A stretch of 64,000 bases of DNA from Podarcis gaigeae. Its lineage: Eukaryota. Positions 13,154 through 58,485 of the stretch are shown piece by piece. The notes beneath the pieces were generated by a model, which was given only the letters and a program-made list of their open reading frames with translations, had not been told where the DNA came from and ran no database searches. The DNA lies in the NCBI GenBank assembly GCA_964106915.2, contig OZ066919.1, one strand, 5' to 3'. Position numbers and translations under genes: made by a program. Numbering within the stretch: position 1 is the first letter of the stretch; each line of letters opens with the position of its first letter.

Positions 13154-16100
13154 CTTTGTGTTAATGTAACTTTTTATATGTAACTTCTTTAAGTTATCCA
13201 TTGCTGCTTCAGGTATTTTTTACACTGCTGAGAGATATTTTGAGGCCACTTCAGTGCTGCTAACACAGTGGTTTGACTTAACCCCCAGAGGCGCACTCCA
13301 GTGTCTCTCAAGACAGACGGATGCCAGCAACAACAACATAGTAATTAAATAATCAAAATCAAATCACATTTTGAGGATTTATTAAAGTAGAAACTGAAAT
13401 AGTCTTCTTCCAAGTGATGACTGGGCTGCAGGTATATTGTTATTGATATGTGAGAACTCCTGGCAGAGTTCACAACTTGACTTCAACCTACAACTTCAGT
13501 TCAGGCTACATCAGTCCACTTGAAGAGGTCCTGAATCCTGATGCTGCTGTTCTGTTCTCTTGTCTATTCACACATGGAAATAATCACTAGATGCTGAATC
13601 GACTGATTGCAGAACATGTATGTGTGACCTCATCCTCAGTCTGCTTCTGTTTTCCTCACCATCTAACTTGCTATAGCTTGAAGCTTTATAAAATGGCTGA
13701 GTTATGGTGGGGAAAAGCTTGAGGCATTAACTGGGCATGGTAAGAGGGGGATTTAAGCAAATATTCTTACCGCATAGTGTCCCTTGCTCATCCTCCCCAT
13801 TTGCACAATTTTGTCTTGCATCACAGACCTGGCTGGCTGGAATGCAGCTAGCTCTGTTGTCACATAAAAAGCCTGTCTGATTACTGGAGGTCACACATAA
13901 ACGATTTACTGAAAAATAAAATTGAGATGAAACAATGGAGGATACTGAGAAAGAAATGATCAGACCGAATCAGACCCCAACCCCCAGTACTATAGTGATA
14001 CATTCAAATAATCCAGTTTTGACCCATAGCCATGTTGGGATGCATCACACATAAATAATGGCCATGAATGAGTTTGCAAATATATGGAATCTTTTGCGTT
14101 GCTCATGTTGATTGCAATAGAGTTTGCATGTGAGAATTGCCGGATGGATTGTGTCTTGTGCCTTACCAGATTCCCAACAAAGCTATGACTATTTAAGGTG
14201 GTATTGTGCACATGTGGCCTTAGTCTTGCCCATTATTTCCAATGGATCTACTCTGAGTAGAATAAACACTGGACACAGCCCCACTGAAAGTATTACTCCA
14301 GTTGGCAGTAGTTTGGTCACCATCATAATAACGAAAGCTAGAAATGACTGACCTGGTGTATGTGGAGGGATGCCAATTGTGACCACCAATGCAATGACAG
14401 TAGCGATGACACCAAGTATACCAAGACCAATGGCAGACACGCAGATACATTGTTGGGTGCAAGGGATGCATGCACAGCAATCTTTGCAGCAACCTTGCAG
14501 GCCCTGTATAGTACCTGTCACAGAGGGAAGACTTAAAGATCAATTCCAAATATACCCTCACACTAAATTTGTACGAAAATCCACACTGAGGACATTGGCT
14601 TCTGCTACTCCCTACTAATTAACCCATATTGAAATTATCCCATGGGTATTTAATTCTATGTTATATAGAACATAACTGTACAAGACTTTATACCCAAAGG
14701 TTTCAACTCGTACCACACCTAACACACACACCTGTCCCATTTATGCTAAAAAAAATAATGCTGGTAACATGTAGGTCATGCCCTAATATTTGCATTTCTT
14801 CATATATATTGCCTTAAGTGCAAGCGGCTGACCTTCTGCAAAGCTCATCTTCTTGCTTCTCAAGAGCCAATGTATGTTCTAGGCAGAGGTGGAGAAAGGT
14901 GGGTGCGGGCCGCCCTGGGTGCCATCCCTGAGGGGGGTTGACATCGCTGCCCTGCCCCCGAAGCTCGCTGCAGGCTGCACCCCCCCCCCAGGAGACTTGC
15001 GCCGCCCGGCACACCCTCCAGGAGGCTCGCAGCGGCCGGCGCACCCCCCTGGGACACATGCTCCCCACCCCTGGGATGCTCGCCCTGCCTCTGTGGGCGG
15101 CTAGCCCTGCTCCCAAGTGCACGCTGCTCCAGAAGCTGGAGCAGCTAGCTTCACCTCTGGTTCTAGTACCTTTTTTCCCCAGTCTGAGGGTTGCATTCCC
15201 TTCTGGGCGTGGGGGTCACATGCCACTGGTGGGCAGGGCCAGAGGAAAAGGTAGGTGGAGCAACAGATACAATGCTTACCTTTGTATAGGCAATTACTTT
15301 CTAGGTAAGCAAAGCCAGAAGTTTCACACACCCACACCTGTCCATCCGCCAGGAAAGAAAGAAAGGCAAGCAAAGACACCACAGGAGAGTGCAGAGGAGG
15401 GACAGTGTAGCCTAAGGAGAGTCTTGAGGGCCAGATCATAGCTGTCAACATTTCCCTTTTTTAAAGGAAAATTCCCTTATTCCGAAAAGGATTCCTCGCA
15501 AGTAAAGGGAAAAGTTGACAGCTATGGGCCAGAGTACTGGATGGTCACATTTGGTATCTGGGCCTAAGGTTTCCTATCCCTGTTCAAAGCTAAATTACGT
15601 GGTAGCACTTTATGAACATATGAAGCTGCTGTCAGACCATTTATTTATTTGGTCCAGTGTTCTCGACTCTGACTGGCAATGGCTCACTAAAGTGTCTTCT
15701 TAATTTGAGATGTCAAAAAGACTGAATCTGGGAACAAAGCATGTGCTCTACCAGACCCTCCAAGTGTCCCTATTTTCCAGGGACGTCCCTGATTTAGAGA
15801 AGCCATCCCGGTTTCTGATTTGATCCCTGAATGCCCCATTTTTCCTTAGGGTGTCCCTATTTTCATTGGAGAAATGTTGGAGGGTATGGAGTTATCCGAC
15901 CTCCGAGCCATCTGAAGGCAACTCTGTATAGAGAAGGGTTTTTTTCATGTTTCATGTTTTATTATGTTTTTATATATGTTGGAAGCTGCCCAGAGTGATT
16001 GGGGCAATCTAGCAAGATGTGTGGGGTATAAATAGTAAAAATTAGCTGACTAATGTATTGTGTAATCTCAGTCCCAGTGCTCATAACTTGCCTTTAGGTG

Positions 16101-21467: not shown

Positions 21468-24400
21468 CTAAAATAACAACAACAACAACAAAATGATATT
21501 AGATGGAAATCATTTCACACAGTAAGTTTTATTCCAGTACATCTTGGTGCATGGATATCATGACTAAAATCTTATGCATACTTACTGGAGAATAACTCCT
21601 ACTGAAGTCAGTGGGACTTACATTCAAGTAAACATGCTTAGGATTATACTGTTAAACAGGACCACACACTTTTAGTTCACTCTCCAGAAACATAGGGTTG
21701 GGGGGTAGGGGTGAGGAGTAGAAGATATTAAACAAGTCTTTATGAGTGAAATTATCAAGGCTTTGAGACACTGGCACAGAAAAGGCACAATTAAATTGTG
21801 CATCAGTAGGAAGTAGCAATGGAAGACTTCAAATTTTAATAAAGATTTTGGACATTACATCTGAAACATAATTAGCCCTTTAGCTGAGCACCACTTTTTA
21901 AAATGGCTGCATATGGCTCCACAAACTACTCGATGATAGATCTTGATCTAATCCTGCATAGCATTTTGTATGTTACATAATATATGAATGGCTATCAATA
22001 TGACTTCTACAATGGTATTTTATTTACATTAACATATTCAGGCATATTTGCTACCAGAAATGCCTCTCCCTTTTTTTGCATTATGGCCTAACTGTACTAT
22101 AACTTTTATGAACTGAGATGGCTTCAGTACTGCAACCTCACAGAAATGCCCACCAAATCTAGAGAATGTCATCTTGCTAAGCAAAAATCACGTGCATGCT
22201 TTGCTTCTGCTGGGAGATGTCAAAACTCATCCCATGAAACCACCCTTGTAATCTTTTGTTTCCCTGAAAAAGCTAGCATGAACTGTCACTACCAGTTTAC
22301 ATATCCCATACTGTATTTGCCCCAATGATCACATCAGCTGATTAAGTTGGCAATTTCATTGGAGATTAGCTATAAGCAGGTGAGACCTCTTACAATATAT
22401 AATCAATATATATCTTCACAATCCTGTTTCATTAACAAGAGAATCATGAGATACTCTCTTCTGCACAAAAGGGCTCTTATCAAACCCAAAGCATTCTGAT
22501 ATCACAGAATATAATGTGGTAGGATGCTGGAAAATTGAGGACTTAAGTTACCTCAGATGGAACATATTGCTCCACAGCAGTAGTAACAGTTGCACAACAA
22601 ATCCAGAGCAACACCAGTACAGAAAGGACAAGTGTGGTTGTCAGTATCCAGCCAGAATTTCTGTAATATAAGAAAACAGATCAGCCATAAAGACAAGCTT
22701 GAGGTATATTGAAAATTGTATCCCCCCTAAATATTGTTTCTACACACACACACAATCCAAAATAGGCAGACTTAGATGCCATCACAGTCAACTACTGTAC
22801 CTTAATCTGGTCCCAGAAAATAAGCAAAAGCTACCATCTTTGAGCTTTCAAGATCTAATAAGAGGTTATTGCTTCCCATTACCATTTACCTTCAGTGAAA
22901 ATGATCACATGATCATGTCTCAGCTTAATAAGCCGAGATATGTACAGACACTATGCCTGTGAAATACAGTGATTTCCTTTCATGCTGTGCCTGAATGAAA
23001 TACAGAAATCTTTTTCAGTTAACCAGTTTTCAATTTCATCCAAACCAGGAACTATGGTTACTAGCTTCAGAATAACTTAACAATTACTGCCACAAGCCTA
23101 AAAGCACAACTACTTTAGCACCTTTCAGACTCAAACTGACCCTCAATATTATGTGAGCCAACAGCTTTGCTCAGAACTTTGTTTTACTTATAAATAGACC
23201 TAACATAGTAATATTAAAGAATGGTCTGAGTTTGGAAACAATGTTCAATGCAAGCAGCATGACAGCAATGTTTGTAGTAAAAGTTGTGCCACTATGGGCA
23301 TTTCCTCTTTTTAAAGAGCATTCAATTAGATACAGCATAAATGGTCAAAATGTTAATTTTAAGAAAATGTTTTGTGAAAACATTTCACATGATTGTTTTG
23401 GTAGTTGAACTACATGTGATATACAGCATTAGGGAATGAAACATGTTTCTCCCTTAAGCAATTACTTCATATGCTAAAATGTACATACATTGAAACACAT
23501 TTGAAGAAGTTATCACTTTCATCTTCGTCGAAGAATCCCTTGTGTGTCTGTGGACCTCCTGGCTGCAGATCTACTGAAAATCATAGTACATTTTTGTTTA
23601 ATTTTATCACAGAATCCAAGACACATGCTCAAGTGTCCAATCTTTCTGTACGCTATGAATGTCTACCCAACCCTTTTTCCTTCCGGTAAATCCTCCTACT
23701 AGACACAGCAAGCTCTTTAAATAAATGTTAAGATTGAGCAGTGCCATTTTTTTTAACTGGAAGGAAGTCCTAGGAAAAAGCGAACAGCTAAAAAATATCT
23801 TGTGAGTTTGTTTCTTACATTTGCAACACGCAGTGTCTTGCTGAACCAGAGCCAATGAAGCAACTGAAGTACAAAACTTGTAAAAACAAGTTTCAGTTGC
23901 CATGTTTAAACATCAGACAAAGATTGTGTCATCAAGCAAATTCCAAACAGTAAGCATCTTAAAAAATAAGCTACTGGTTTCCACAGTTATCTAATCATGA
24001 ATACAAATTGCCGGTCAGACACTGACAGTACATCCTTACTGTTTGGCAAACCATATTCTATTCCTTGAAGTTCCCTAAAACAACTTACAAGATGCTTTGC
24101 GAAATGATGGTTCTTTTAAATCCTGTGTTTCCTGACCAGGACTTTCAATGAACTGAACTTCTGGCTTTGACTGAAATAACAACAAAACCTTCAAATTAGT
24201 GAAACAAACCTAACATATTTACCTACATAATGACACAAACTGTAATTTAAATAGACACATTATATTTTTAAGCAGAGCAAAGCCATTAAAACAGAACACT
24301 CCCAGACATTCAACATGGAGTTATTTGATTTAAAACAGAATAACAAAAAACACCCTCCCTTAGTTCTCTTGAACTCTTATGTCAGAACAGCTAAGAGCAG

Positions 24401-27400
24401 GTTAGCAAGTACCTGGAATATTACTATTTTGCCATCATCAGCTTGAAGGTAGAAAGTCCATGAGGAGGTGATGAAGCTATGGGCTGTTTCCATCATATCA
24501 CTCCAGAATGATCTCACAAGCGTAAGGGGGAATAGAAGATGCATTCTTGGCATTAAGGACATGAGCTGCAAATAAATAGTGATTCACATATTAATATAAA
24601 AGCAACAATTTCAAACATGTCACAGAGCTTCTCTCCACAATTTACTTTTAAAATAGTTGAAGAATGGGAATACAAGCAGTGAAAATGTATTCACTCACTT
24701 TAATATAAATACTTACATGGTCTCGTCTCAGTTCAGCATATGGTAACTGATTCTGGCATCCAAGACGGCAGGCATATTGTTCATCAGACTGAGAGGTATA
24801 TGCCTCAGAACATGCTGTAAAAGACAGATTCTTTCAGTTTAAATGGTCACACCTTCCACATAAGCAGCTAAAGCACACTTGAATATTAGGGTGCAACACC
24901 ACAACATATTGCTACTAATGTTGGACTTCCCTTCCTGATGCTCATCTTTCCAATCAAATTATGTCAGTTGTGAGATAAGAGAGAGGCAAAATTGAACTAC
25001 ACTTCAGCATTCAGGATCTGTAAAAACAACCACACACCCTCCCCAAGTGACAGAAATACCAAAGAGGGGCAGGGTAAAACCAGAATACCCACTCACTTTC
25101 AGTATGACCCTGAGCTATATGCTTAGCTTTCAGTTTTGCCAACTCTCTCAGGATGCAACTTTTAAAAGGCTCCAGTTCCAGCATTTTAGATAGGAGACAG
25201 GCAAAACAATAGCACTGCAGAGTGAAAATAACAATTGTATACAGAGAAACTGCAGAGGGAAAATAAACTCTTCCCAGAACTGTGTACTCAGCAAGCCAAT
25301 TAGGGCTGCAATGCTATGTGTGCTTACTTGAAGTGAGCACTACTCAAAGTCAATGGATTTACTTCCAATCAAAGCTTACAAGATTATTATTCATGAATGT
25401 TTATATTTAATGTCCAATTCAGCATGGAAACAGAACTTTCTCTTCCATGACAGGCTCAATCTTGTGACGGGGTGCAGACCTATCTCATACGGTAGAAGCA
25501 AGACCCATACTGTCTCAACAAAGCTGCAAATAGCTTTGGGACTAAGAGATTCCTATCCCAGCTGCAAATAACTTTGTGACTGAAAACTTCTTAATTACAC
25601 TTTCTTTCATCTTAGATAACTCCTCTTTGTTTCAGAAAAATTCTCTTTCAAAGGAGAAGCTACAATTACAAAAATCTTAAGGCATCAACACTATTATATT
25701 TTATATCACAACATTCTATTACGTTGCAAACTTTTGTTTATTTTAATTTCTCATTTTATTTTTAAGCTTGCAATGACATTTTATGATAACTAACAAAATG
25801 TGACAAGGTGCATGTTTTAAGGCTTATTATTTTGTTATAGATTTCCCTGATGACAGGGTATCTGTGGCTTACACATGTTGACGTTAAGCCAAATTTACTT
25901 TTTTGACTTTGTAATAAATCAGATTTCATGCCCTTATGTGGACACTTATTTTGTTGCATGATTTTGGAAGCTTCCTCCTTGCTGAACTCTCTTGATGTTA
26001 ATCAATTAACATCATGCTGTTAATTCTTCTCTTAGGGAGATATCCAACTAAGTCACACTTCGGGTAGACTGACTGAAATAAAGTTCAATAAGCCTACTCT
26101 GAGTAGTGAAGAAAAGTGGTGACAACCCATATATTACAAGCTGAAAAAGAGGCTAGCTTATCTTACCGGAGTCACATTCCAACTTGGTCCGATTCAAATC
26201 AATCCCATCATCCACAAACTGACAAATGGAGAAGAGTCTGCAGCCCCTTTGACATGCATAGAGCTCTTCTTCCTGGTAATGAAAACCTAAGAGGTCAGTA
26301 TCACTCTTTTATAATCATCCTACTCTAACCCTACTCATACCACAAAGACATACACAATGTGCTGCACAATTTAACTTCAAAAAACTTTTTCTTTTATTAT
26401 TTCACAGAGCTACAAGAGTGAGCCAAGATTTTTCACTGAGACTTCAGCAGACTACTAAGGTTAGTAAAAGTAGGCTTTAATAGAAGTCTTGTATCTGATC
26501 CTTGAAACACCTTATACAAATATGAAACCAAGATGTTGATTGAAATATTATTATTTAGTTTACTTTGGAACAAGCTGCACAAATATAAACTATCTTGAGT
26601 GGGTGATTGTGGACCAGATCCAGGTGCCCTTGATGGAAATTTATTTTTTAGATCCATTTCAATCAGAGTTTAGGCTCTGTTTTGGCACAGAAACTGCTTT
26701 GATTGCCCTGTATGAGGACCTCTGTTGGGAGAGAGAGAGAGGAAATAGGTCCTGGTTAATTCTCCTCAACCTCTCAGCAGTTTTTGATACCACTGACCAT
26801 GATATCCTTCTGGAGTGGCTGTCCCGAGTTAGGGGTGGGTGGCACTGCTTTTGACCAACCTGTATTTGAGGTATCCTTTCTCCCCAGTCTAGAGACGTGG
26901 GTGGCGCTGTGGTCTAAACCACAGAGTCTAGGGCTTGCTGATCAGAAGGTTGGCAGTTCGAATCCCCACGACGGGGTGAGCTCCCATTGTTCGGTCCCAG
27001 CTCCTGCCCACCTAGCAGTTCAAAAGCACGTCAAGTGCAAGTAGATAAATAGGCGGGAAGGTAAACGGTGTTTCCGTGCGCTGCTCTGGTTCGCCAGAAG
27101 TGGTTTAGTCATGCTGGCCACATGACCCGGAAGCTGTCTGCAGCCAAATGCCAGCTCCCTCGGCCTATAGAGTGAGATAAGCGCGCAACCCGAGTCGTCC
27201 ACGACTGGACCTCATGGTCAGGGGTTCCTTTACCTTTCTCCCTAGTCAACATATGGACCCCTTCTCCTATAAGCTAGATATTTATCTATTATGAATATTT
27301 CAGTCTTAATCAGGAACCTGAAAGCAGGTGTAACACACATGCTCCAAAATGGTAATTCTTATGCGGTTCAACAATCAAATGACAATGTATAACTATGTAT

Positions 27401-30450: not shown

Positions 30451-31071
30451 TCCCCATCCTTCTCGGACATAATGTTTCTCTGGGTTTCACAGCATTCCCT
30501 GCCTTTTAACTCTCTTTGATCATCAAGCCTGCATTGTGAATGTTCTTCGTCCTTTCTCTATTGTCTGTTCGGCTTGCAATATAGGAAGGAATAGTAGCTA
30601 TCCGATCGCCCTCTTACCCTGGGTGCTAGTAGGAGTTCCTCTCAAATCTGTAGTTGAGGAAGAACATCCAAAACAGAGGGCATGACTCATCTTTGAGGGA
30701 TATTAACTCCTGGTCTCCATCAAACCATTGTTGCTTCTGAGAGGTTTGAGTACTTGTGGTCTGATACCCAATTTTCTTCTCTGTCTTCTGTTGTTACACA
30801 TTATTAACTCAGATGCCGTGATTTTATTCCAAACTGCCAGTTAGAGTATGAAAGTCTTTCTCCTCCCCCACTATTTCCCGCTATCATCATTTACTTCATA
30901 TTAATGGGCACTGTGCTGTGTTAGTCATAGCTGCAAGATCTGTATCAACCCCAGATATTCTACTGAAGAAGATAATTGTACAGTGCACACACACACCCAT
31001 ACACCCGGCCTTTGAAACAGAATTGTCTTTTTGCTCCATTCAGTGGCTTCTGTCTCTTTAAGGACTGTGTT

Positions 31072-31173
31072 ATGGATAAGTTTGTTATACGAAAACCAAG
31101 GACTGAAGGACAGCCTAAGGAGAAAGATCCTAGAGAAAAGATTTACAAGCAAGCTACTATAGAATCTCTGAAG
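31072..31173 (+). CDS. TCEANC2: TCEANC2 coding exon 1
   Basis: ATG GAT AAG TTT..CTG AAG|gtaaga. Confidence 0.94.
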
Positions 31174-34100
31174 GTAAGATATTGGATATGCTCAAATTAT
31201 TCTAATTTCATTAAATGTCTACTATAATATGTTATGGCTGTCCTTTTGTTTCAGATAGCTTGACAGTGTTTCTGAGCGTACAGATAGGGAAGGCAAAACT
31301 TAGCCAAGCAAAGGAGGAGAGTTATTGGGTTGTTTTCATTTTATGGTGTATTTTGTGTTCTCCTTTTGTTTCTTGATGTTGTGAACCACCTTGTGATCTT
31401 CAGATGAAGGGCAGTATACGAAATAAATAAATACTAGCAAAGCAGAAGTTATTTTGAGAGATAGGTAGGTACAAAATCCTATAGGGCAATAAGTACCTGG
31501 GTCTGGGTGGGTGTGGTTAGTCTCTTCACAGTCATTGGAACAAAATCATTAATGAACATGTTGCACAGTTAACTATTAAGGTTCCCTAAAGTAGTCAGAA
31601 ACACATCTTTTATAGTATGGGTTTGATCCAGAGAAATGTGGGCAGAAGTGGTTGGTTGCAAGATGACTTCCCTCCCCTTTCTTCTCCCTTTCCCTTTAGC
31701 CTTAACTCACCACATTCAGCAGGGTGTCTCCCCCCCCCCCCTTTCAGGAGAGGCTTGAGGGTTCTGTGGGGATGGATCTGATACTGTGCATGCAGTTTAC
31801 AAACCATTCCTGCTAGAGAGGTCCTAATGCGGTAGTTCAAAAGCTTCAGTGAAACTTTACTTGGTGTGCTGGACTACAGCATCTATCATCTCTTGATTAT
31901 TGGCCATGTTGTCTGGGGCTGATGGGAGTTAAGGGTCCAACAGGTGCTAGAGGGCCACAAGTTCCCCTCCCTTGGCAGAAGGAGTGGGTCCAAAGTGGTG
32001 AAGAAACTGCAAGAAGTCCATGTAAAGGCTGACAACAAAAAGTGCTGCATCAGTGAAGTAAAAAGTTAGCTTACAGTGGACCAAGTCAGGAGGGGGTGGT
32101 GGTTATATTTGCTTGAGGTGTTTGGCCTACTGAGATTTGGAATGAAGAATTTGGATGATGGGCTGTGGCTTGAAAAAAATATTTGGTAAGTGCAGGGATG
32201 ACCTTACATTGGGATGAGATGAAAAATAAGAGCTGGTAGTTGACAATACAATGAGGTGTTTTCATGTTTTGTTTTGTTTTAAAAAACCCTGCTTAAAACA
32301 CTCACTTCAGAATAGTAAGTGGATTGAAGATGGCAGTCTAATGAGTTTATTTTGCTTTCTAGATTTCTCTCATTTGCTTCACATCAGGGACTTACTGTGA
32401 AACAAGTATTCGTCTGTTTGGATTACCTAGGTTTCCTGCACTTAGTCTACCTGTCATATTTAATAATTCATAAGTCAATAGCAATCATATTAGCTGACAG
32501 AAAACAGTACATTTATCTGCAATAAGTTATGTGTGCCTCTTTCTGTCTCCTAATGATGATTGTTCTTTGCAGAGGGTTGTGGTTATAGAAGATATAAAAA
32601 GATGGAAATCTATGCTAGAGCTTTCAGTTCAGTCCAAGGAGAATCTAATTGAAGCCTTAATGGAATTAAAGAAGAAAATACCCTCCAAAGAAGTTTTACT
32701 TTCAACAAAAATAGGTAACATTTTTTTTTCTTTTCCCATTGGAAATATGTATGTGGTTCATTTGAATAAACTGAGACCTATCAGTTGTGCTCATTTTAAA
32801 AATGCTTGGCATGTTGAATATATATATATATATATATAATGTGAGCTTAAACCTGACTGGCATTTAAGTATCCATGTTAAAGACCTTTCCCCACTCTCTG
32901 CCCTCGCTGATCTTACGTTAGCTGTCTTAGTTGGTCATTATACCTCTAGCAGTAACCAAAGTTACCAAGGCAGCTTTAAATATATTTAAATACAATGAAT
33001 TAGTCAAGAACTCGTATGGAGAAGTGAAGATGTATACAGATGTTCCAGCTGTCATAACTGCTGTGCTAAATCTCTGGGCTTAATAGCAGGCTTTGGTGGA
33101 AATAACACTGGCCTGGAAACTGCTGGCAAAGCAGCCAAATGTCAGTCCATCTCATGGCAAGTCTTTTTCACCCATGTTACTGATTCCAGGTGCTTCCAAG
33201 CTTGCCCTCAGTTTTTAGAAGTTTCATTCATACTAATATGTCTTAATGTGTGCTAAGACTTTGTGTTGCTTTCATCTTCTGCAAGGTCATACAGTGAACA
33301 AGATGCGCAAACATTCAGATCAGGATGTGGCCGCTCTTGCCAAAGAAGTGTATACTGAGTGGAGAACATTCATCAAAGACCATTCAAATAGGCCCTCAAT
33401 AGAAGTGAGGAGTAATCCCAGGACAGAGAAGCTTAGGCAGAATGCACGGAAGCTACTTGCTGAAGCTCTAGAGCTGGAGGTGCTGTGTTTTTTATTACTC
33501 ATTTTCTGAAAATGGCTTTGAATGAGAAGCATTTTTCTTTACAAAGTTGGGGTGGTTCTGTTACGGATTTAGGGCATATGCCAGGAATTCAAAACGGAAA
33601 AGTGCTGATCTTAGTGACGAGAGGCATAAGGTTTAAATTCTAGTTGCACTTTATAGTGGATATGAGTCTGTATTTATAATTTGCTTGTTGTACACATAAC
33701 AACAACCTGAATGATTTGCAACTTACTTTTTAAAAAATAAGGGGAACAATGTATAACCTTGCCTATAGTGATTTAACTATTATTTATGTAACATTATGCT
33801 ATTTTATTTTATTTACACCTTGCCTCTTCCTCCCAAAGGAGCCCAAGTTGCAACAGCAAAACAAAACAAAAAATGTTCTGAAACAGTTAAAACATAATCT
33901 CATCCAGTGATTTCAGGGTTGCCAGAAACAGTGTCCTTCAGTCATCAAATGGCTGGGTATTAAAGACAGGCAGCCTGCTGAAATATGAGGAGACGTTATT
34001 ATCTCCATGAGTCTATGCAGCAGATTTCTTACTCTTCTCAGAGAATAATGGTAATGGAAATCACTCCAAAGGTCATCTAGTCCAACCCCTTGTGGATGCA

Positions 34101-37100
34101 GGAATTCTGTCATGTTCCAGCAAGACTATCTGATTTTTTAAAAAGGTTTTAAGCCCTATACATAAGCGTGTTCACTTATATGTTTCCCCCCTGAATTTTT
34201 TTAAGTTTCAAAGCTGCGTCAGGGATTATGTGTGCTGTTTAGCATCATATGCAATATCCAGTCAGCACTATCTATAGCTGGCTTTTTCTCAATGAAACTG
34301 AAACACCCTCAATTTACAGAGCAGGATCTTTCTTCCTAGGAATAAAACTAATGTAGATTTTATATTGAATGCAATGGGTGTGTTTCCAACCCATCCCCAG
34401 TGCTCTAAAAATGTTCCATTTGTCTTCACCTCTTCAATCAGCGGGGAAGGAAGAAAGCAATAGTTAAATAAATCAAAAAAATAATTTAAAAACGTTTTTG
34501 CAGCATTGTGAGAAATTACATGGAAATTCGTCTTTTGGTGTTGTAGAATGAGAAAACCTTTCTGTAGGTGGCTGCAAAAGTATCGTCTGATCCTAAGACT
34601 GAAATCTATTGTTAGGAACTTTCACTGTCTTTCCCCCCCAGATATATTCTTTGTAATGAGGGGGGTATAGAAAAAAGGTCGTGTACAGGATCTGCAACAA
34701 CAATAACTTATTTAAAATATTGACATCCTTCCCAAATTCGCAAAGCTTGAGAGTAGCTCTCAAAAGTCCTATGAACAATATCAAATAAAATAAGGCACAG
34801 TATAAAATCAGCGGAAATGAGGAGAGTGTGCAGAATGATAGAAGCAACAGAATCAGAAAACATTTTCAGTTAGAATTCGGTTCCATGGCATGCAGAAAAG
34901 CCTGGGCAAATGAAAAGCTCTTTACTTGGTGCTGGAAAAGACATCAGATTTGGCACCTGGGAGGAACATTCTGTGTATGGGCACTGAGAAAACTCCCTCC
35001 CTAGTTGTTACTTGCCTAACTGCAGAAGGTATGGGGTGGAACTAGGAAATCTTAATATGATTATATAATCATAATATACTACTATAATCTTACTATGATT
35101 ATAAAGTTGAGCACAGTCATGTGATAGAAGACCATGGACTCTACATGACCCTGGACTCTAACTGACGGGTAGGAGTAGTAGAAAAAAACATTTGCTTTTG
35201 CATAGCCAGCATGTACATATCATCCTAATAATTCAAAGAAAGGAAAGCATGGAAATGGATTGTTAGTGAACAATACCACATGGTATTAGCACAGCAGCAG
35301 AACTGGCTTTCCCTCCTCCTCCCCACCCTTCAGTTCCCATGGATTGGGACTCTGGAGCAAATTTTGGGGGTCCTCAAGGAGCTGCGTGGTGTGTGGGGGG
35401 GAGCAAAGTCCTATAGTGTGAGCAAAAGCCTGCTTGTGCAACATTGGAGATCACACAATATTTTAATGCACTAAATCTGTGCTAAAACCCTTTGGATGCT
35501 CTGTATTTCAGGCAAACTTTATATCCGTAATTAAGTGTTTGTAAATCAAAGTTTATTGTGAGAACCTACAGAGAGGGTCAATAGTGTACAAAGTGGTGGT
35601 AAATATCAGATCCCTGTGGTATTCTTAAGTAATGAACACAACAAGAATTCTCTCTAAGCCTTAATGATCAGTTTGCCTGCTATATTAAACTCCATAATAA
35701 TTATCCTTTTAATGTATTCATTAATTATCCTTTAAATGGCACGTCAAGGCCCTCAGGAATTGCTGTGCAAAATTTAGAAGCAGTGTTTACAGTCCTTGTC
35801 AACTCTGGTCAGAAAATCATGCACCGTTTCTGCTAAGGAGCTAATGTTGGGTCCTGAAGCTGGAGTGCTCAGCTTCAACTCTACCATGTATGTAACTCTT
35901 CAGATACATGCTTGATGTTGCTAATCTGGAGCAGTCAGTAGCCAGAAGCCAGTTTTAATTGGGATTGTGTCCTGGCTCATTACTATTCATATATGTGCTT
36001 CTCCACTTTTGCCAAAAGGCAGGGTCTGCATGTTCAGGGCTCTTTTATTTCCACCTCGTGCAAACATATATATTGGGTACCAAGAGCCTTTTGCCTGCCA
36101 GATGTTGCTGAACTAAATTTCACACCAGCTCTAGCAAGCATGGCCAAGGATGATGGGAGTTGTAGTTCAGCAACATCTGGAGAGCCAGAGCTTCCCCGCA
36201 CTTGACTGATACGCTGCCTCCACCTTTCTTTTTCCATCCGTTACTCTTGTTGCATCTGGCTGGTCACTGAGGTACTACTGTATAAGATTCATATATAATG
36301 CAAACTATTTGCAGACTTTTCCAGTTACGAATTGGGTGAATTCTAGTCTTTAATGTCATAAGCATCTAATTTTGACAGCACGGTGTTGGGGAATAATATA
36401 CTTGCTGAACTTGCTTCTGCCTACTAGCAAGTTGGCTGTTGGGCAAAGGAGCCTAATTTTTTTTGCAGGGGGGGGGGAATGTGACATCCCCACTCATGCT
36501 GAGAACTTCAAAGGCCAGGGTGGTAATAGTAAAACACAGAGTATCTTCTTCTGTTGAACCCCTTCTGGCAATCCCCCATCAGTGTTGGATTAAGCCATTA
36601 TGATCCCTGGCAAAACATAAAATCATTCTTTTAATTTATTAAATAAATAATAAAACAATGGAGATGGAGCCTGTCCAGTATTTAATTGCTGGGGTGTAGG
36701 GGCAGGGCAAGATTCCAATAAGTAGGAGCTGCCACATTAAAGGCCTGATTCCTACATAGTATAGTATGGCAACAGGCCTTCTCCTGAAGAACAAAATGAT
36801 CAGTAGAATATATAAAGGGTTGAGACTATTGTATCCTGATCCCAAGCTGCATAGGACTTTGTACACTAGAACCAGCACCTCACACTTAGCCCAGAAGCTA
36901 ATTGGCAGCCGATGCCATTATTTTCTAATTGGAGCCCAAGGGCTAGTAAATGTAGTTATTAGACTTTTAGACCGCTTTTCAGGCTAAAATGCTTCTCAAA
37001 GCAGTTTAGAACTGTATACAAGGCAAATCCAAAAATAAAATCATTAAGCACATATCCAGTATGATGCAATGTACTCTAGCCAACATTCCACATACAGTAA

Positions 37101-38421
37101 AACAAAAATGGCCTCCAGAGGCCATGTTTTTAAAAGTAAGTTTTTAAGGCCAATTTAAAGTTAACAAGCGATGGGACTTGCCTTATCTCTCTTGGAATCT
37201 AATTGCAAGAACAGGGAAGCCACAACTGAGAAGGTCCTGTTCTGTGTATTCACCAGTATAATCAAAACTCCCCGTCCTATTATTTGAATCTTCCCCACAA
37301 GAGCCATTCTTACTAACACAAAGAAGTGCCATATGCATTTTCATGAACCACCAGAGGTGAGCTGTGAGCAAAATATGAGAGGCAAGAATTAGAATTAGAA
37401 GCTATTCAAAATAATTGGAGCAGTGAGCTTTGGACGGTGTGTTTTAGATCCACAACCCTTCAAAGATTAGTGATCTTATGGAGGATGAGGAGGGTCAGTG
37501 ATTTCAGCAGAGTACTAAAATTTAGATATAAGATTCCACAAAGAGTGGGAAGTGGTTATACCACAGCAGAGGTGAAAATAAGCCTGAAGATAGTAACAAT
37601 TGAACATTCTGGATTCTCCCCAAATACAGAATTCCTCAGCACTAATGGCCAAAAGAGAAATAAACCCTTTCTTGGTAGGCAATAGTTGCTTTTCATTTAT
37701 TTCTATATAATTTATTTAGATGTCTCAGCTGTGCCAAATTACATAGCTTGGCACATGTTGAAGCAATAACTTCATAATTAACATTTAGCAAATCCCTTTC
37801 TGTTTTCTTAATTACACCTCCTTACACTTGCTCACAGAGTCTGCATTTCCCTTTACAGCCCTGCCAGTCGGCCCTGCCAAGTATTTAGAACATCCAGGTT
37901 TTGGTTTTGGAGTTGAGTTTGAAATGCTATCAAAAGTGTCTTGTATCACTGAATGTTATCGGAGGCAGTATTACCCTGTTCGTAATTGCACTTGAACCTG
38001 ATACCCCAGGTTGGCTGCAGATTAGTTTCCTGTTGGGCTGGCAAAAAAAGCGACTGACCACACTGCCTTGTTCTTTAATTGCTGGAGTGAAATTAAATTG
38101 CTCTTCCTGTTTTACTTGTGATGTGAAGTGGATTTCCTTGAATTTGAGCTGATTAAGAAACCAGCCTCCAATTTCAAACAGTTAGTCTCCTTATTAAATG
38201 TAAGGATCTCATTTCTTACTTTCTGTTTTCAGATTGGTCACCCGCTGGTGGAAAATATTGAGCGAGAAGCTTTTCATCTCTCATCCCGTCTCATTAGCGC
38301 GCCCTACCGCAGGACTGTGCGAGCCCTCGTATTCGCTTTAAAGCACAAGCCTGAAACGCGGACACAAGTGCAAAGTGGTGTGCTGTCACCTAGCGTGCTT
38401 GTGCAAAGCTACAAAAAGTGA
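31072..38421 (+). CDS. TCEANC2: Transcription elongation factor A N-terminal and central domain-containing protein 2, join(31072..31173,32573..32714,33286..33479,38233..38421), 208 aa
   Basis: GT-AG exons sum to 627 nt in an open frame: [55 protein letters not shown]/..[24 protein letters not shown]. Confidence 0.96.
32573..32714 (+). CDS. TCEANC2: TCEANC2 coding exon 2
   Basis: ttgcag|AGG GTT GTG..ATA G|gtaaca. Confidence 0.95.
33286..33479 (+). CDS. TCEANC2: TCEANC2 coding exon 3
   Basis: tgcaag|GT CAT ACA..CTG GAG|gtgctg. Confidence 0.93.
36630..36915 (-). mobile_element. L2 LINE 3' fragment
   Basis: Minus frame [16 protein letters not shown] resembles the L2 ORF2 C-terminal KVLVLTYKAL.GLGP.YL motif. 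Confidence 0.6.
38233..38421 (+). CDS. TCEANC2: TCEANC2 last coding exon
   Basis: tttcag|ATT GGT CAC..AAG TGA; candidate AATAAA at 39519 and 40823. Confidence 0.94.
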
Positions 38422-55400: not shown

Positions 55401-56643
55401 GTCAGTCAACTCAAATTCTGTTAAGTAGCATGATGCGATAAAAATACCGTAATTGATTTAAAGTGGGAGATCAGTGGGGAGAGTGGACCTTGGGGGCGCC
55501 AGAGGAGGCCTTTGTGAGTGCACCTGTGCCCACAGGCACCACGTTGGTGACCTCTGAATCAGTGAACATTCGTTGTCAGGTGGGGGTTGCCACGCTGTTC
55601 CCCACTAACATGCCGCAATGTTCTTTGGTTTATCATGGGCACCTCCACACACCTGCTTATTGCCAAGCCAATCCTGTCTGCAACTTTTCCACAGCATACC
55701 TATGACATTGTTGTTGTCATCAAAATACCACTCCATTCAGCTCCCCTCATTTAATCCAGGCAGGCTATTTTAGACTACCTGGGGCTACGCTGTATAAGGA
55801 AGAGCCTAATAAATAATATAAAAAAAACTCTGCATGCAAAGTGTGCCTATCCACAGTTCAAAGTGAAATTAAATGTACATCACTAGTTTTCTGTTAGAAT
55901 TGCTGCCAGTAATCCATAACATAATCTGCCTTTGAACTTTGGGGGGGAAAGGATCAAAATGATCTAAATTTGGCTTAATCTCTCCTTGATTAGTAAGAGC
56001 TGTTTTGGCTAAGAAGCCAGTTATGTTGGGATAGGTGCCCTGAAGCCCACAGGCTATATCCAGTCAAAGTCATACTTCTAATGGAAGATGAGATCTTGGG
56101 GGAACACAGCTGATCTTATTGCTAAGGTGATGCTGCAAAGGAGTTTGGGCTTCTGTGTACAACTGAGTACTCCCCCTTCAATTTTAACAGGCAACAGCCA
56201 TCTTTTTCTGCACTTACTCTAAATGGGCTTTACTTCTGACATCTAAACCTGCTGCAAACCCCCACCCCCTGCCTAACCTGGCCTCTCTCTTGTGCATTCA
56301 GCAGCAGGTTGGTGGTACAGCAATCAGCAGGTGAAGTTTACATAACATGAAGATAAACATTACTACCTGCTAATGTTTGCACATCAAGCTTCTCTTGAAT
56401 TTAAAGAGACAGTGACAGTCGACAGCTGCAAAGCAGGCAATCTCCCTCCTGCCTGAAGGAAGTATGTACACATATGTGTACATGCCAACGTGTGTGTGTC
56501 TTCGGAAGGATTTAGTATTCACACATAGGAACAGAGGAAGCTGCTTTATACTGAGTCAGAAGAACATTGGTCAATCTAGTTCAGTATTGTTTGCAGTGAC
56601 TTGCAGTGTCTAGCAGAGGAGTGGTGGGAGGCACCAGCTAGAC

Positions 56644-57786
56644 CAGTGTTTCCCAACCGGTGTTCCGCGGCACACTAGTGTGCCGCGAGACGTTGCCTGG
56701 TGTGCCGTGGGAGGGAAGCGGGCGAGTCGGGTGGCGAGGAGAAAAGGCGACGAGCGGCGTCCCCTCAGAGCGCGGCGGGGCCACGAGCGAGCTGCCTCCT
56801 AGGCGCGCCTTCCCCGCCTCTCCTTCGGGGTGTCCCTGCGCTGCTTCTCCGACGCTGGAAGCAGCGGCAGCGGCAGCAGCAGGCAAGCAGCCCCTCCCTC
56901 ATGCTGCCCTGGGTGGCGGAAGGGACAGGCGGGCCAAAGGGTCGCCGCCGCTCGCCTTTCCCGCGCGTTTCTCCACTTCGGTTCGACTTTGGGACTCGAA
57001 GCGCGCCGGCGGCGGCAGCTCCCTGAGAGAGAGAGAGAGAAAGAGCGAGCGGCTTCGCTTCTTTTCGACTGGCTGAGGGAGCTCTTTGCCGGATTTCCTC
57101 TCGGCGCTACCGCGGCTGAGGGAGCCGCAGCTTGCTTGCTCGCTCGCTCTCTTGCTCGCTGAGGGAAGGTGGCGAGGTGCCAGTCAGCGCTCCAGCCCAC
57201 CCCCTCCGCGCAGACGGACGCACACGCGCACCTTATCAGCATGCAAGATCCTCCCACCCCCGTCCCCAGACTCGCCACGCGCCCTGCACGCGCGTGGCTG
57301 CTGCTGCTGCTGCTGCTGCGGGGGAGTTTTCGCCAGCGACGCGCGAGAGCGGTGCTTCGCCTGAACGTGTGAATGAAGATACCTGTGGCGCTCGTTGGGT
57401 GGTTTTTGCAGGAAGGTGGATGTGAGCGAGCGCTTCTTCCTTCCTAACCTGGCGTGTCACCTGTGCACAGAGATGTTCTACCTGCAGAGTCAGTTCTCTG
57501 CTCCCCGCTTCATCCTCGCACAACTGCCATGCGAGGTTAGTTAAGCTGAGAGTCAATGGCCAGTATTTTATAATTTTTCATATTTCTGTTTACTTACTAT
57601 TTCATAATAAAGTAATTATAAAATACTTTCTTTGTGTTTATTTGATTCCTATTAAAGAGAGTTACTTTATATATAGTCAATATAGGCACAGAGTTAATTT
57701 TTTAAACATTTTCTAATGGTGGTGTGCCTCGAGATTTTTTTCATGAAACAAGTGTGCCTTTGCCCAAAAAAGGTTGGGAAACACTG
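56644..57786. mobile_element. Young non-autonomous hAT (Charlie-like) element, 1143 bp, with GC-rich cargo
   Basis: Perfect 15-bp TIR CAGTGTTTCCCAACC/GGTTGGGAAACACTG; perfect 8-bp TSD AGCTAGAC (56636-56643, 57787-57794); subterminal 22-bp palindrome at 56666-56687; no transposase. Confidence 0.93.
57412..57535 (+). pseudogene. Candidate captured coding exon inside the hAT element (KVDVSERFFLPNLACHLCTEMFYLQSQFSAPRFILAQLPCE), source gene unknown
   Basis: gtttttgcag|G...GAG|gttagt boundaries; 124 nt, 41 stop-free codons, 30 of them ending in G/C. Confidence 0.55.
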
Positions 57787-58485
57787 AGCTAGACAATCCC
57801 CAAGGGAAGAAGGCTCAAAGACCCGGGACTGGTGGTGGGACACAATGAATGGTCAGAGGGTGAGAGGGAGAAGACTGGGAGGGGAAGTATTGGAAGCTGA
57901 AGAGGGAGCAGGGTTTAGTGAGCGGGGAGAGTCTGTGGCAGAGAGCAGTCCAGAAGCAGGAGAGGAGGGAGGCCAAGAGGCAGAGTGGAGACAGGCTGGT
58001 GAAGAAGCGCAGGGGTCTCCCGCTCCTACTGCAACAAGCTCCCCTCCCTGCTGTTTTTCCAGAATCAGGAGAGTCATGAAGCAGCATTCCGGCATAGTCT
58101 CAGATTGCTTGTGAAAGATCCAGGAGAGGACAACACTTAGGCAGCTGTGGGAAAGCAGGGACCTTCGATCTCCACAACTGCCTCATAGGGGCAAGACCTC
58201 CCGAGAAGAGTTGCTGTGCTCATTTGGCGTGGCACTCCAGAGCTGACCTTGCTTCTTCTAATAAAGCTAACTTCACTTTCTCCGTGTGATTTATTGCTGG
58301 CCCATTGCTCTCACCAGGGTTCCAGACAGGGTCCTATGTGGAGATGCCAGAGACTTAACTTCTGCATGCAAAGCAGATGTCCTATCACTAAGCCCTAGCC
58401 CTCCCCTGCATCTGTACAAATAAAGCCTGTAATGATATTTCAAGCCTTCCGAAGCTGCTCTTTATATTTTCTGCAGACCTTTTCC

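Follow-up and report, generated by a model that had tools for sequence, protein, structure and literature searches.

The described systems closest to the element reported here are the Pack-TIRs of animals, the Pack-MULEs of rice and the Helitrons of bats. Pack-TIRs were defined by Tan et al. (2021), whose survey of 100 animal genomes gives four multicopy cases among 370, records no Pack-TIR for Anolis, where its table counts no hAT, and notes the capture of GC-rich DNA; for Pack-MULEs, the same article quotes a multicopy share of 36% and, again, GC-rich capture (PMC8277862). In bats, Helitrons have captured promoters and first exons, and the promoters of 15 genes are reported at 4,690 copies (Thomas et al. 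2014, PMC4224331); Helitrons of Xenopus and plant Pack elements are covered in PMC12001565 and PMC8903248, respectively. Among lizards, the hAT family hobo_AC of Anolis was described by Novick et al., in whose main text the terms "exon" and "host gene" are absent (PMC3014272).

Here, we describe a non-autonomous hAT element of the Buster type, 1143 bp in length, that has 15-bp TIRs and an 8-bp target duplication and is located at positions 56644–57786 of a 64,000-nucleotide stretch of Podarcis gaigeae DNA (hereafter, the window), together with the family to which it belongs. A preliminary description had reported an orphan coding exon of 124 nt in this DNA. According to our main reading, to which we assign a probability of about 0.85, these 124 nt are a chance exon-like stretch in an 830-bp copy of the start of SLC8A1, which a young Buster-type hAT element gained by microhomology-guided template switching and which the transposase of a master element later moved.

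The family is similar to Pack-hAT-N8_XT of Xenopus tropicalis in its hAT arms around a host piece, distinct target-site duplications (TSDs), junction microhomology, an interchromosomal source without a transposable element (TE) and GC-rich cargo from a 5' UTR, although the Xenopus example is given with 3 copies, whereas the lizard family comprises eight multicopy types with 2 to 23 copies each and at least 86 in total (PMC8277862). Its mosaics of up to four loci and its intact masters also distinguish it from the multicopy animal Pack-TIRs presented in that article. As with rice Pack-MULEs and plant Pack-TYPE elements, non-autonomous TIR elements capture, join and amplify GC-rich gene pieces (PMC5861414, PMC8903248); unlike Pack-MULEs, the lizard elements belong to another superfamily, occupy a vertebrate host and draw on vertebrate CpG islands as donors. 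Bat Helitrons are likewise DNA transposons of a vertebrate with a capture bias toward 5' ends, sequential captures and cargo in either orientation, but they are rolling-circle elements without TIRs or TSDs that reach far more copies, whereas the lizard element is of the cut-and-paste type (PMC4224331). Finally, hobo_AC also comes from a lizard, and this hAT has common ends around interiors that vary strongly and consist of captured genomic DNA; it differs in belonging to the hobo clade and in its filler, which is described as fragments of other transposons (PMC3014272). The kind of element is known from Pack-TIRs, Pack-MULEs and bat Helitrons, while its scale stands out among animal TIR elements. 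In a literature search without Repbase and most subscription journals, no paper was found that describes this lizard family or shows a lizard hAT capturing promoters.

The features of the element and its borders are as follows (window coordinates, strand, feature).

56636–56643, plus: left 8-bp TSD, AGCTAGAC, which fits nnnTAnnn (from the sequence and the family consensus)
56644–56658, plus: left 15-bp TIR of the hAT element (from the sequence)
56644–56738, plus: left arm, about positions 1–95 of the 2792-bp master, with its final 5 nt common to the captured piece (from the alignment)
56734–57563, minus: 830-bp copy of part of the CpG island of SLC8A1 (C3:105616118-105616937), the gene sense being the minus strand of the window
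56734–57331, minus: captured part corresponding to the 5' portion of SLC8A1's non-coding first exon (from the depth-779 spliced contig at the source)
57332–57563, minus: captured part upstream of the 5' end of the contig, which we infer to be the likely proximal promoter of SLC8A1
57412–57535, plus: the reported 124-nt "exon", likely a pseudo-exon antisense to promoter DNA (from the sequence, RNA contigs, homology searches and splice scores)
57562–57786, plus: right arm, 225/225 identical to master positions 2568–2792, with its first 2 nt common to the captured piece (from the alignment)
57772–57786, minus: right 15-bp TIR (from the sequence)
57787–57794, plus: right 8-bp TSD (from the sequence)

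The element consists of an arm (master 1–95), 830 bp of C3 and a second arm (master 2568–2792), with microhomology of 5 nt and 2 nt at the two cargo junctions. The cargo is 95.5% identical to its C3 source when gaps are included, with 14 substitutions. A 181-bp query had three genomic matches: the copy in the window, another full element, on C8, and the TIR-less source on C3. The stretch is not an orphan as had been supposed. The complete C8 element has its own, different duplication and is 98.8% identical to the window element; their cargoes are 4 substitutions apart over 830 bp, and each is 14 away from the C3 source. At C3:105,616,118-105,616,937, only the interior of the element is matched, and no TIR is present. 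The C3 source, the two arms and the junctions confirm the original proposal of DNA-level capture: a transposon took the piece up from a parental locus. The "flanking intron-like sequence" of the preliminary description proved to be something else: promoter and 5' UTR DNA on the left and, from 28 bp past the donor on the right, an AT-rich transposon arm. Retroposition was rejected because the piece has no poly(A) tail and the cargo runs across the likely start site into upstream DNA. Segmental duplication was also rejected, as the matches end at the transposon arms and the TSDs differ.

Non-TE cargo lies between both TE arms, the parental locus is without a TE, and the family shows several insertions with distinct TSDs (two for the SLC8A1 cargo); the window element is a multicopy Pack-hAT, an already known kind. 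Pack-MULEs have long Mutator TIRs and a TSD of 9–11 bp. With its 15-bp TIR and 8-bp TSD, the window element works like a Pack-MULE but is not one.

The source piece on C3 is a CpG island with a GC content of 0.66 and a CpG observed/expected ratio (o/e) of 0.99. A spliced contig of 2843 nt from run X1, with a depth of 779, covers L043:4350-5357 and continues to an exon 31 kb away, whose 600-aa frame matches sodium/calcium exchanger 1 (NCX1) at E = 0, in agreement with the Pfam search. The direction of splicing and the ORF place SLC8A1 and the supposed exon on opposite strands. These data demonstrate that the source of the 830-bp cargo is the start region of SLC8A1 (NCX1). The gene was identified from a loose end in the RNA, and a six-frame ORF listing over 196 kb did not name it. 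The 5' end of the depth-779 contig maps to window position 57331, and therefore the 124 nt sit 81–204 bp upstream of that end, which, like the contigs in general, fixes neither the start site nor the expression level. A second GC-rich stretch, within intron 1 of SLC8A1 (L043:6240-6350), may be an alternative first exon. The RNA evidence consists of one contig set (X1) from a related organism, with a guessed RNA label, and is one informative run of four; the raw reads of runs X18–X20 gave essentially no reads on the SLC8A1 locus.

The preliminary description had taken the 124 nt for an internal coding exon of a conserved but unnamed vertebrate gene, captured together with its introns and with the potential for exonisation or gene trapping. 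The sequence features behind this reading were reproduced, as AG closes at 57411, the 124 nt span 57412–57535, GT opens at 57536, and the 41-codon frame is open with G or C at the third position in 30 of 41 codons (GC3 of 0.73); the capture at the DNA level is also genuine. However, the piece comes from the start region of SLC8A1, read on the opposite strand, and none of the frames searched gave a homologue. The 41-aa peptide had no match in Pfam or the PDB, and in a word search of a collection containing lacertid and other vertebrate proteins, no protein of 73–2000 aa had three 5-residue words in common with it. Using phmmer against 1.84 billion proteins, we obtained a single tandem-repeat protein, with no stretches and no BLASTP alignment, which is spurious. 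A protein search of the lizard's own genome with the peptide returned the three DNA copies and one match at E = 0.43 containing a stop. The in-register frame of the opposite strand is likewise open, and it gave no hit at E ≤ 1 among 89 candidates of 248–2000 aa and none in the PDB. Five overlapping frames of the stretch yielded nothing under E = 0.16 in Pfam, and Rfam gave no match.

The genomic position of the window copy also argues against this reading. The copy is intergenic, between two convergent gene ends. These ends, located by motif, are the last coding exons of two genes that we take to be TCEANC2-like (plus strand, at about 38.4 kb) and CDCP2-like (minus strand, just beyond the end of the window, at about 69 kb in its coordinates). 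Exons of genes that are presumably LDLRAD1-like, TMEM59-like and TCEANC2-like lie in the window at 13771–13944, 22552–26272 (minus) and 31044–38400 (plus). The suggested gene trapping or exonisation thus does not apply to the window copy. The reading as a conserved coding exon has already been largely refuted, and we consider it very improbable.

The splice sites were scored with an approximate consensus matrix, using the real SLC8A1 sites as a yardstick. By this approximate measure, the acceptor of the 124-nt stretch is weak (2.4 versus 4.7 for the true SLC8A1 exon-2 acceptor) and the donor is moderate (3.5 versus 6.3 for the true exon-1 donor), both sites scoring under their genuine counterparts. 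On the two strands of the window, 20 open AG..GT segments of 100–250 nt had sites at least as strong, a number that includes the stretch itself and some real exons. Dinucleotide shuffling of the 830-bp cargo produced a comparable open AG..GT segment in 37 of 300 shuffles and a segment that also had a GC3 of at least 0.73 in 7 of 300. The GC pattern over the codon positions, in which 24 first, 15 second and 30 third positions of the 41 codons are G or C, is uncommon: it was matched by 2 of 1000 shuffled versions of the 123-nt sequence and by 7/1523 and 11/1532 background windows (about 0.5–0.7%), a rarity that has to be read with the fact that the stretch was singled out from 64 kb. This pattern counts against pure chance and is the best argument for the coding-exon reading. 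Two single-base differences in the frame were found among the three genomic copies, and both alter an amino acid, although so small a number carries little weight.

Transcription from CpG-island promoters often runs in both directions. The 124 nt could be a genuine exon, captured along with the promoter, of an antisense transcript that diverges from the SLC8A1 island and is either non-coding or equipped with a short ORF specific to the lineage. A plausible acceptor and donor, arranged as a transcript running backwards out of the island would require, and the uncommon codon-position pattern are consistent with this possibility, and the RNA view rests on a single informative run. In that run (X1), however, the 124-nt source region was covered only by an unspliced contig of 295 nt with a depth of 3.2, which is at the level of background, and no gaps over both sites, and neither a splice joint nor a loose end at either site was present among those listed. 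Moreover, the acceptor is not only weak on the approximate matrix but G-rich, the 81 bp to the likely start leave little room for an upstream exon and an intron, the 41-aa frame has no homologue, and the few differences among the copies all change the protein. An antisense exon is therefore improbable in our view. Taken together, these results suggest that the exon claim very probably fails and that the 124 nt are a chance exon-like stretch (pseudo-exon); the analysis would thereby remove a false exon and name its source.

With respect to the origin of the cargo, template switching as the main reading holds it would proceed in the following manner. After a break in the element, synthesis would leave it at position 95, copy the CpG island and return at position 2568, switching templates at microhomology in gap repair or at a stalled fork. 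Accessible DNA, sometimes from several loci, would be copied before the return to the element. The product would retain both arms and could be moved in trans by the transposase of intact masters. CpG-island gene starts might be favored as donors either as open, unmethylated DNA or since such cargo keeps the element mobile, and the 124 nt would be promoter DNA that is not spliced. Seven further traced cargo types share the anatomy of the SLC8A1-cargo element, and junction overlaps of 2–13 nt were observed at many junctions of other cargo types.

A different origin would be end bypass from an element once located beside the SLC8A1 island, or the C3 locus might itself be a transposon remnant. Uptake of flanking DNA is known for TIR elements (Tan et al. 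2021, PMC8277862), and a TFDP1 piece in the master, described below, gives no direction of copying without the DNA of relatives. On the other hand, TIR and arm were absent within 1.5 kb of all 11 donors tested, and the CENPW donor was without a TIR. The breakpoints are internal and the cargo is enclosed by the two native arms, mosaics combine pieces of four loci from three chromosomes, and the C3 piece is continuous with a transcribed and spliced SLC8A1 exon, which argues against a remnant. Both variants are extremely improbable.

A 32-nt pattern of the left end had 358 exact matches in the genome, a count that omits variant ends and includes a few inner duplicates, and a control had none. Two 2792-bp masters (L138 and L139) each contain an intact ORF of 626 aa. 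TSDs were identical in 109 of 118 elements, with T at position 4 in 108 and A at position 5 in 107 of these 109, which is the nnnTAnnn pattern known as the Buster TSD consensus (PMC3517528). The best named relatives of the 626-aa ORF are ZBED5-like and SCAND3-like proteins, with a precomputed DUF4371 assignment, while the local Pfam search gave only a weak Spin-doc finger and the PDB search nothing. The 15-bp TIR, the 8-bp nnnTAnnn TSD and the ZBED5/SCAND3-like ORF assign the family, as judged from sequence, to the Buster/Charlie group of the hAT superfamily. The ORF is 96% identical to a protein of Podarcis muralis, 93% to one of Rana over 73% of its length, 90% to Thamnophis, 85% to Xenopus and about 80–87% to fish proteins, and newt is also among the close relatives. 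This high identity (85–93%) to frog, snake, newt and fish proteins suggests horizontal transfer, and the family has likely been both horizontally transferred and recently active.

Positions 116–305 (190 bp) of the master L139 match, in antisense, the single-copy, TIR-less TFDP1 island L207:1031-1237 (C8:29,368,178-29,368,384). The two agree in 182/207 columns and differ by 8 substitutions and two gaps, of 16 bp and 1 bp. TFDP1 was named by an exon 22 kb downstream of this island (E = 2.1e-29), and the island is, from its position, likely the TFDP1 promoter. The piece sits about 380 bp upstream of the transposase ATG and holds what we take to be NRF1-like and ETS-like motifs. No further match was found between the rest of the master and 90 kb around the island, and adjoining parts of the same island serve as cargo in two other types. 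The simplest reading is that this piece was captured from the host, and a host promoter piece in a master would offer a concrete way for an element acquired by horizontal transfer to become expressed in its new host. A bolder scenario, which we regard as unlikely and put forward tentatively, is that a horizontally arrived element pirated the TFDP1 promoter piece, expresses its transposase from it and now shuttles and recombines host CpG islands, planting a hundred or more ectopic and possibly unmethylated ones; the family would then be a vertebrate counterpart of rice Pack-MULEs and likely still polymorphic.

The cargo of the family was surveyed in the first 100 listed left ends (C1–C3 and two on C8), of which 98 were scored; an entry whose fetched DNA showed no right end and an inner-end duplicate were dropped. 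Cargo was traced to a host locus in 27 of the 98 elements and was CpG-rich but not traced in 11; 10 had no cargo, 49 carried GC-rich tandem or transposon-like filler (not traced), and one a LINE-like insertion. Twelve TIR-less donor loci were found. When CpG islands were defined by GC ≥ 0.55 and CpG o/e ≥ 0.6 over 500 bp, 11 of the 12 donors passed, compared with 15/465 flank windows (about 3%), 4/128 windows in the window and 8/392 on C3. The remaining donor failed narrowly (0.53/0.62), and two secondary pieces beside island donors failed too. The enrichment is strong but does not come from a blind sample, because the cargo types were picked for tracing after inspection, two types not being searched for donors.

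Besides SLC8A1 and TFDP1, the named donors are RANBP9 (E = 7.6e-40), UBE2G1 (15/15 residues, E = 0.011), a CDK5 activator gene and CENPW; the others are five islands without a gene name and the locus that narrowly failed the island test. The donors are likely mostly gene starts. Copy numbers were 10 for the UBE2G1 type, 21 for a RANBP9 mosaic, 9 for a CDK5 activator mosaic and 23, 6 and 3 for three unnamed types, and these 72 copies had both TIRs in 72/72 and a TSD in 71/72. With the 2 copies of the SLC8A1 cargo and 12 of CENPW in the sample, at least 86 copies of eight multicopy types were counted. The RANBP9 mosaic joins four loci on three chromosomes, and its 21 copies have 20 distinct flanks. 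Cargo was present in both orientations across the family. Multicopy Pack-TIRs have been counted as rare in animals (4/370), yet a single young lizard hAT holds eight or more multicopy cargoes that could be traced, and CpG islands are the source of almost all of them. Its dozens of near-identical island copies at unrelated sites raise the question of whether a moved CpG island can stay unmethylated and promoter-like by sequence alone. Why three unrelated kinds of element, MULE, Helitron and hAT, favor GC-rich 5' ends is likewise a testable question.

Several further observations concern individual cargoes. In the UBE2G1 cargo (L014), two pieces of the donor locus (L162 and L163) lie 1.2 kb apart there and on opposite strands, which is a local template switch. 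The same UBE2G1 5' UTR and first exon have at least 29 older matches (74–86%; L164:1270-1930 and L165–L181). L164 has different inverted ends, presumably Tip100-like, and no match to the 2792-bp master, and is likely an older, independent hAT capture of the UBE2G1 island. Eight loci (L253–L268) carry a related cargo, 83% identical to the C28 donor piece, in family elements nested in master sequence; this cargo is an earlier or sister form of the CDK5 activator mosaic. For a CpG-rich cargo of 25 copies (L064:131-928 and 24 others), no donor was found among 31 candidates in the assembly, L238 being rejected as it carries a transposon arm. The missing donor may reflect an assembly gap or capture in another lineage. 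This cargo ends in what we take to be a DCLK2-like start codon region, and one fragment of it, with the start of an arm, sits in other, LINE-like DNA.

Half of the sample (L090, L073, L087 and 23 others; L066, L109 and 21 others) consisted of elements with GC-rich tandem arrays or palindromic filler. The arrays have a unit of about 116–118 bp, with lengths stepped from 353 to 1759 bp, and the palindromic filler terminates in the terminus of another DNA transposon. Finally, one near-full-length element contains an insertion of LINE-like DNA that begins with poly(T) and spans 1.7 kb (L069:284-1959), with a short master-sequence duplication at its flanks.
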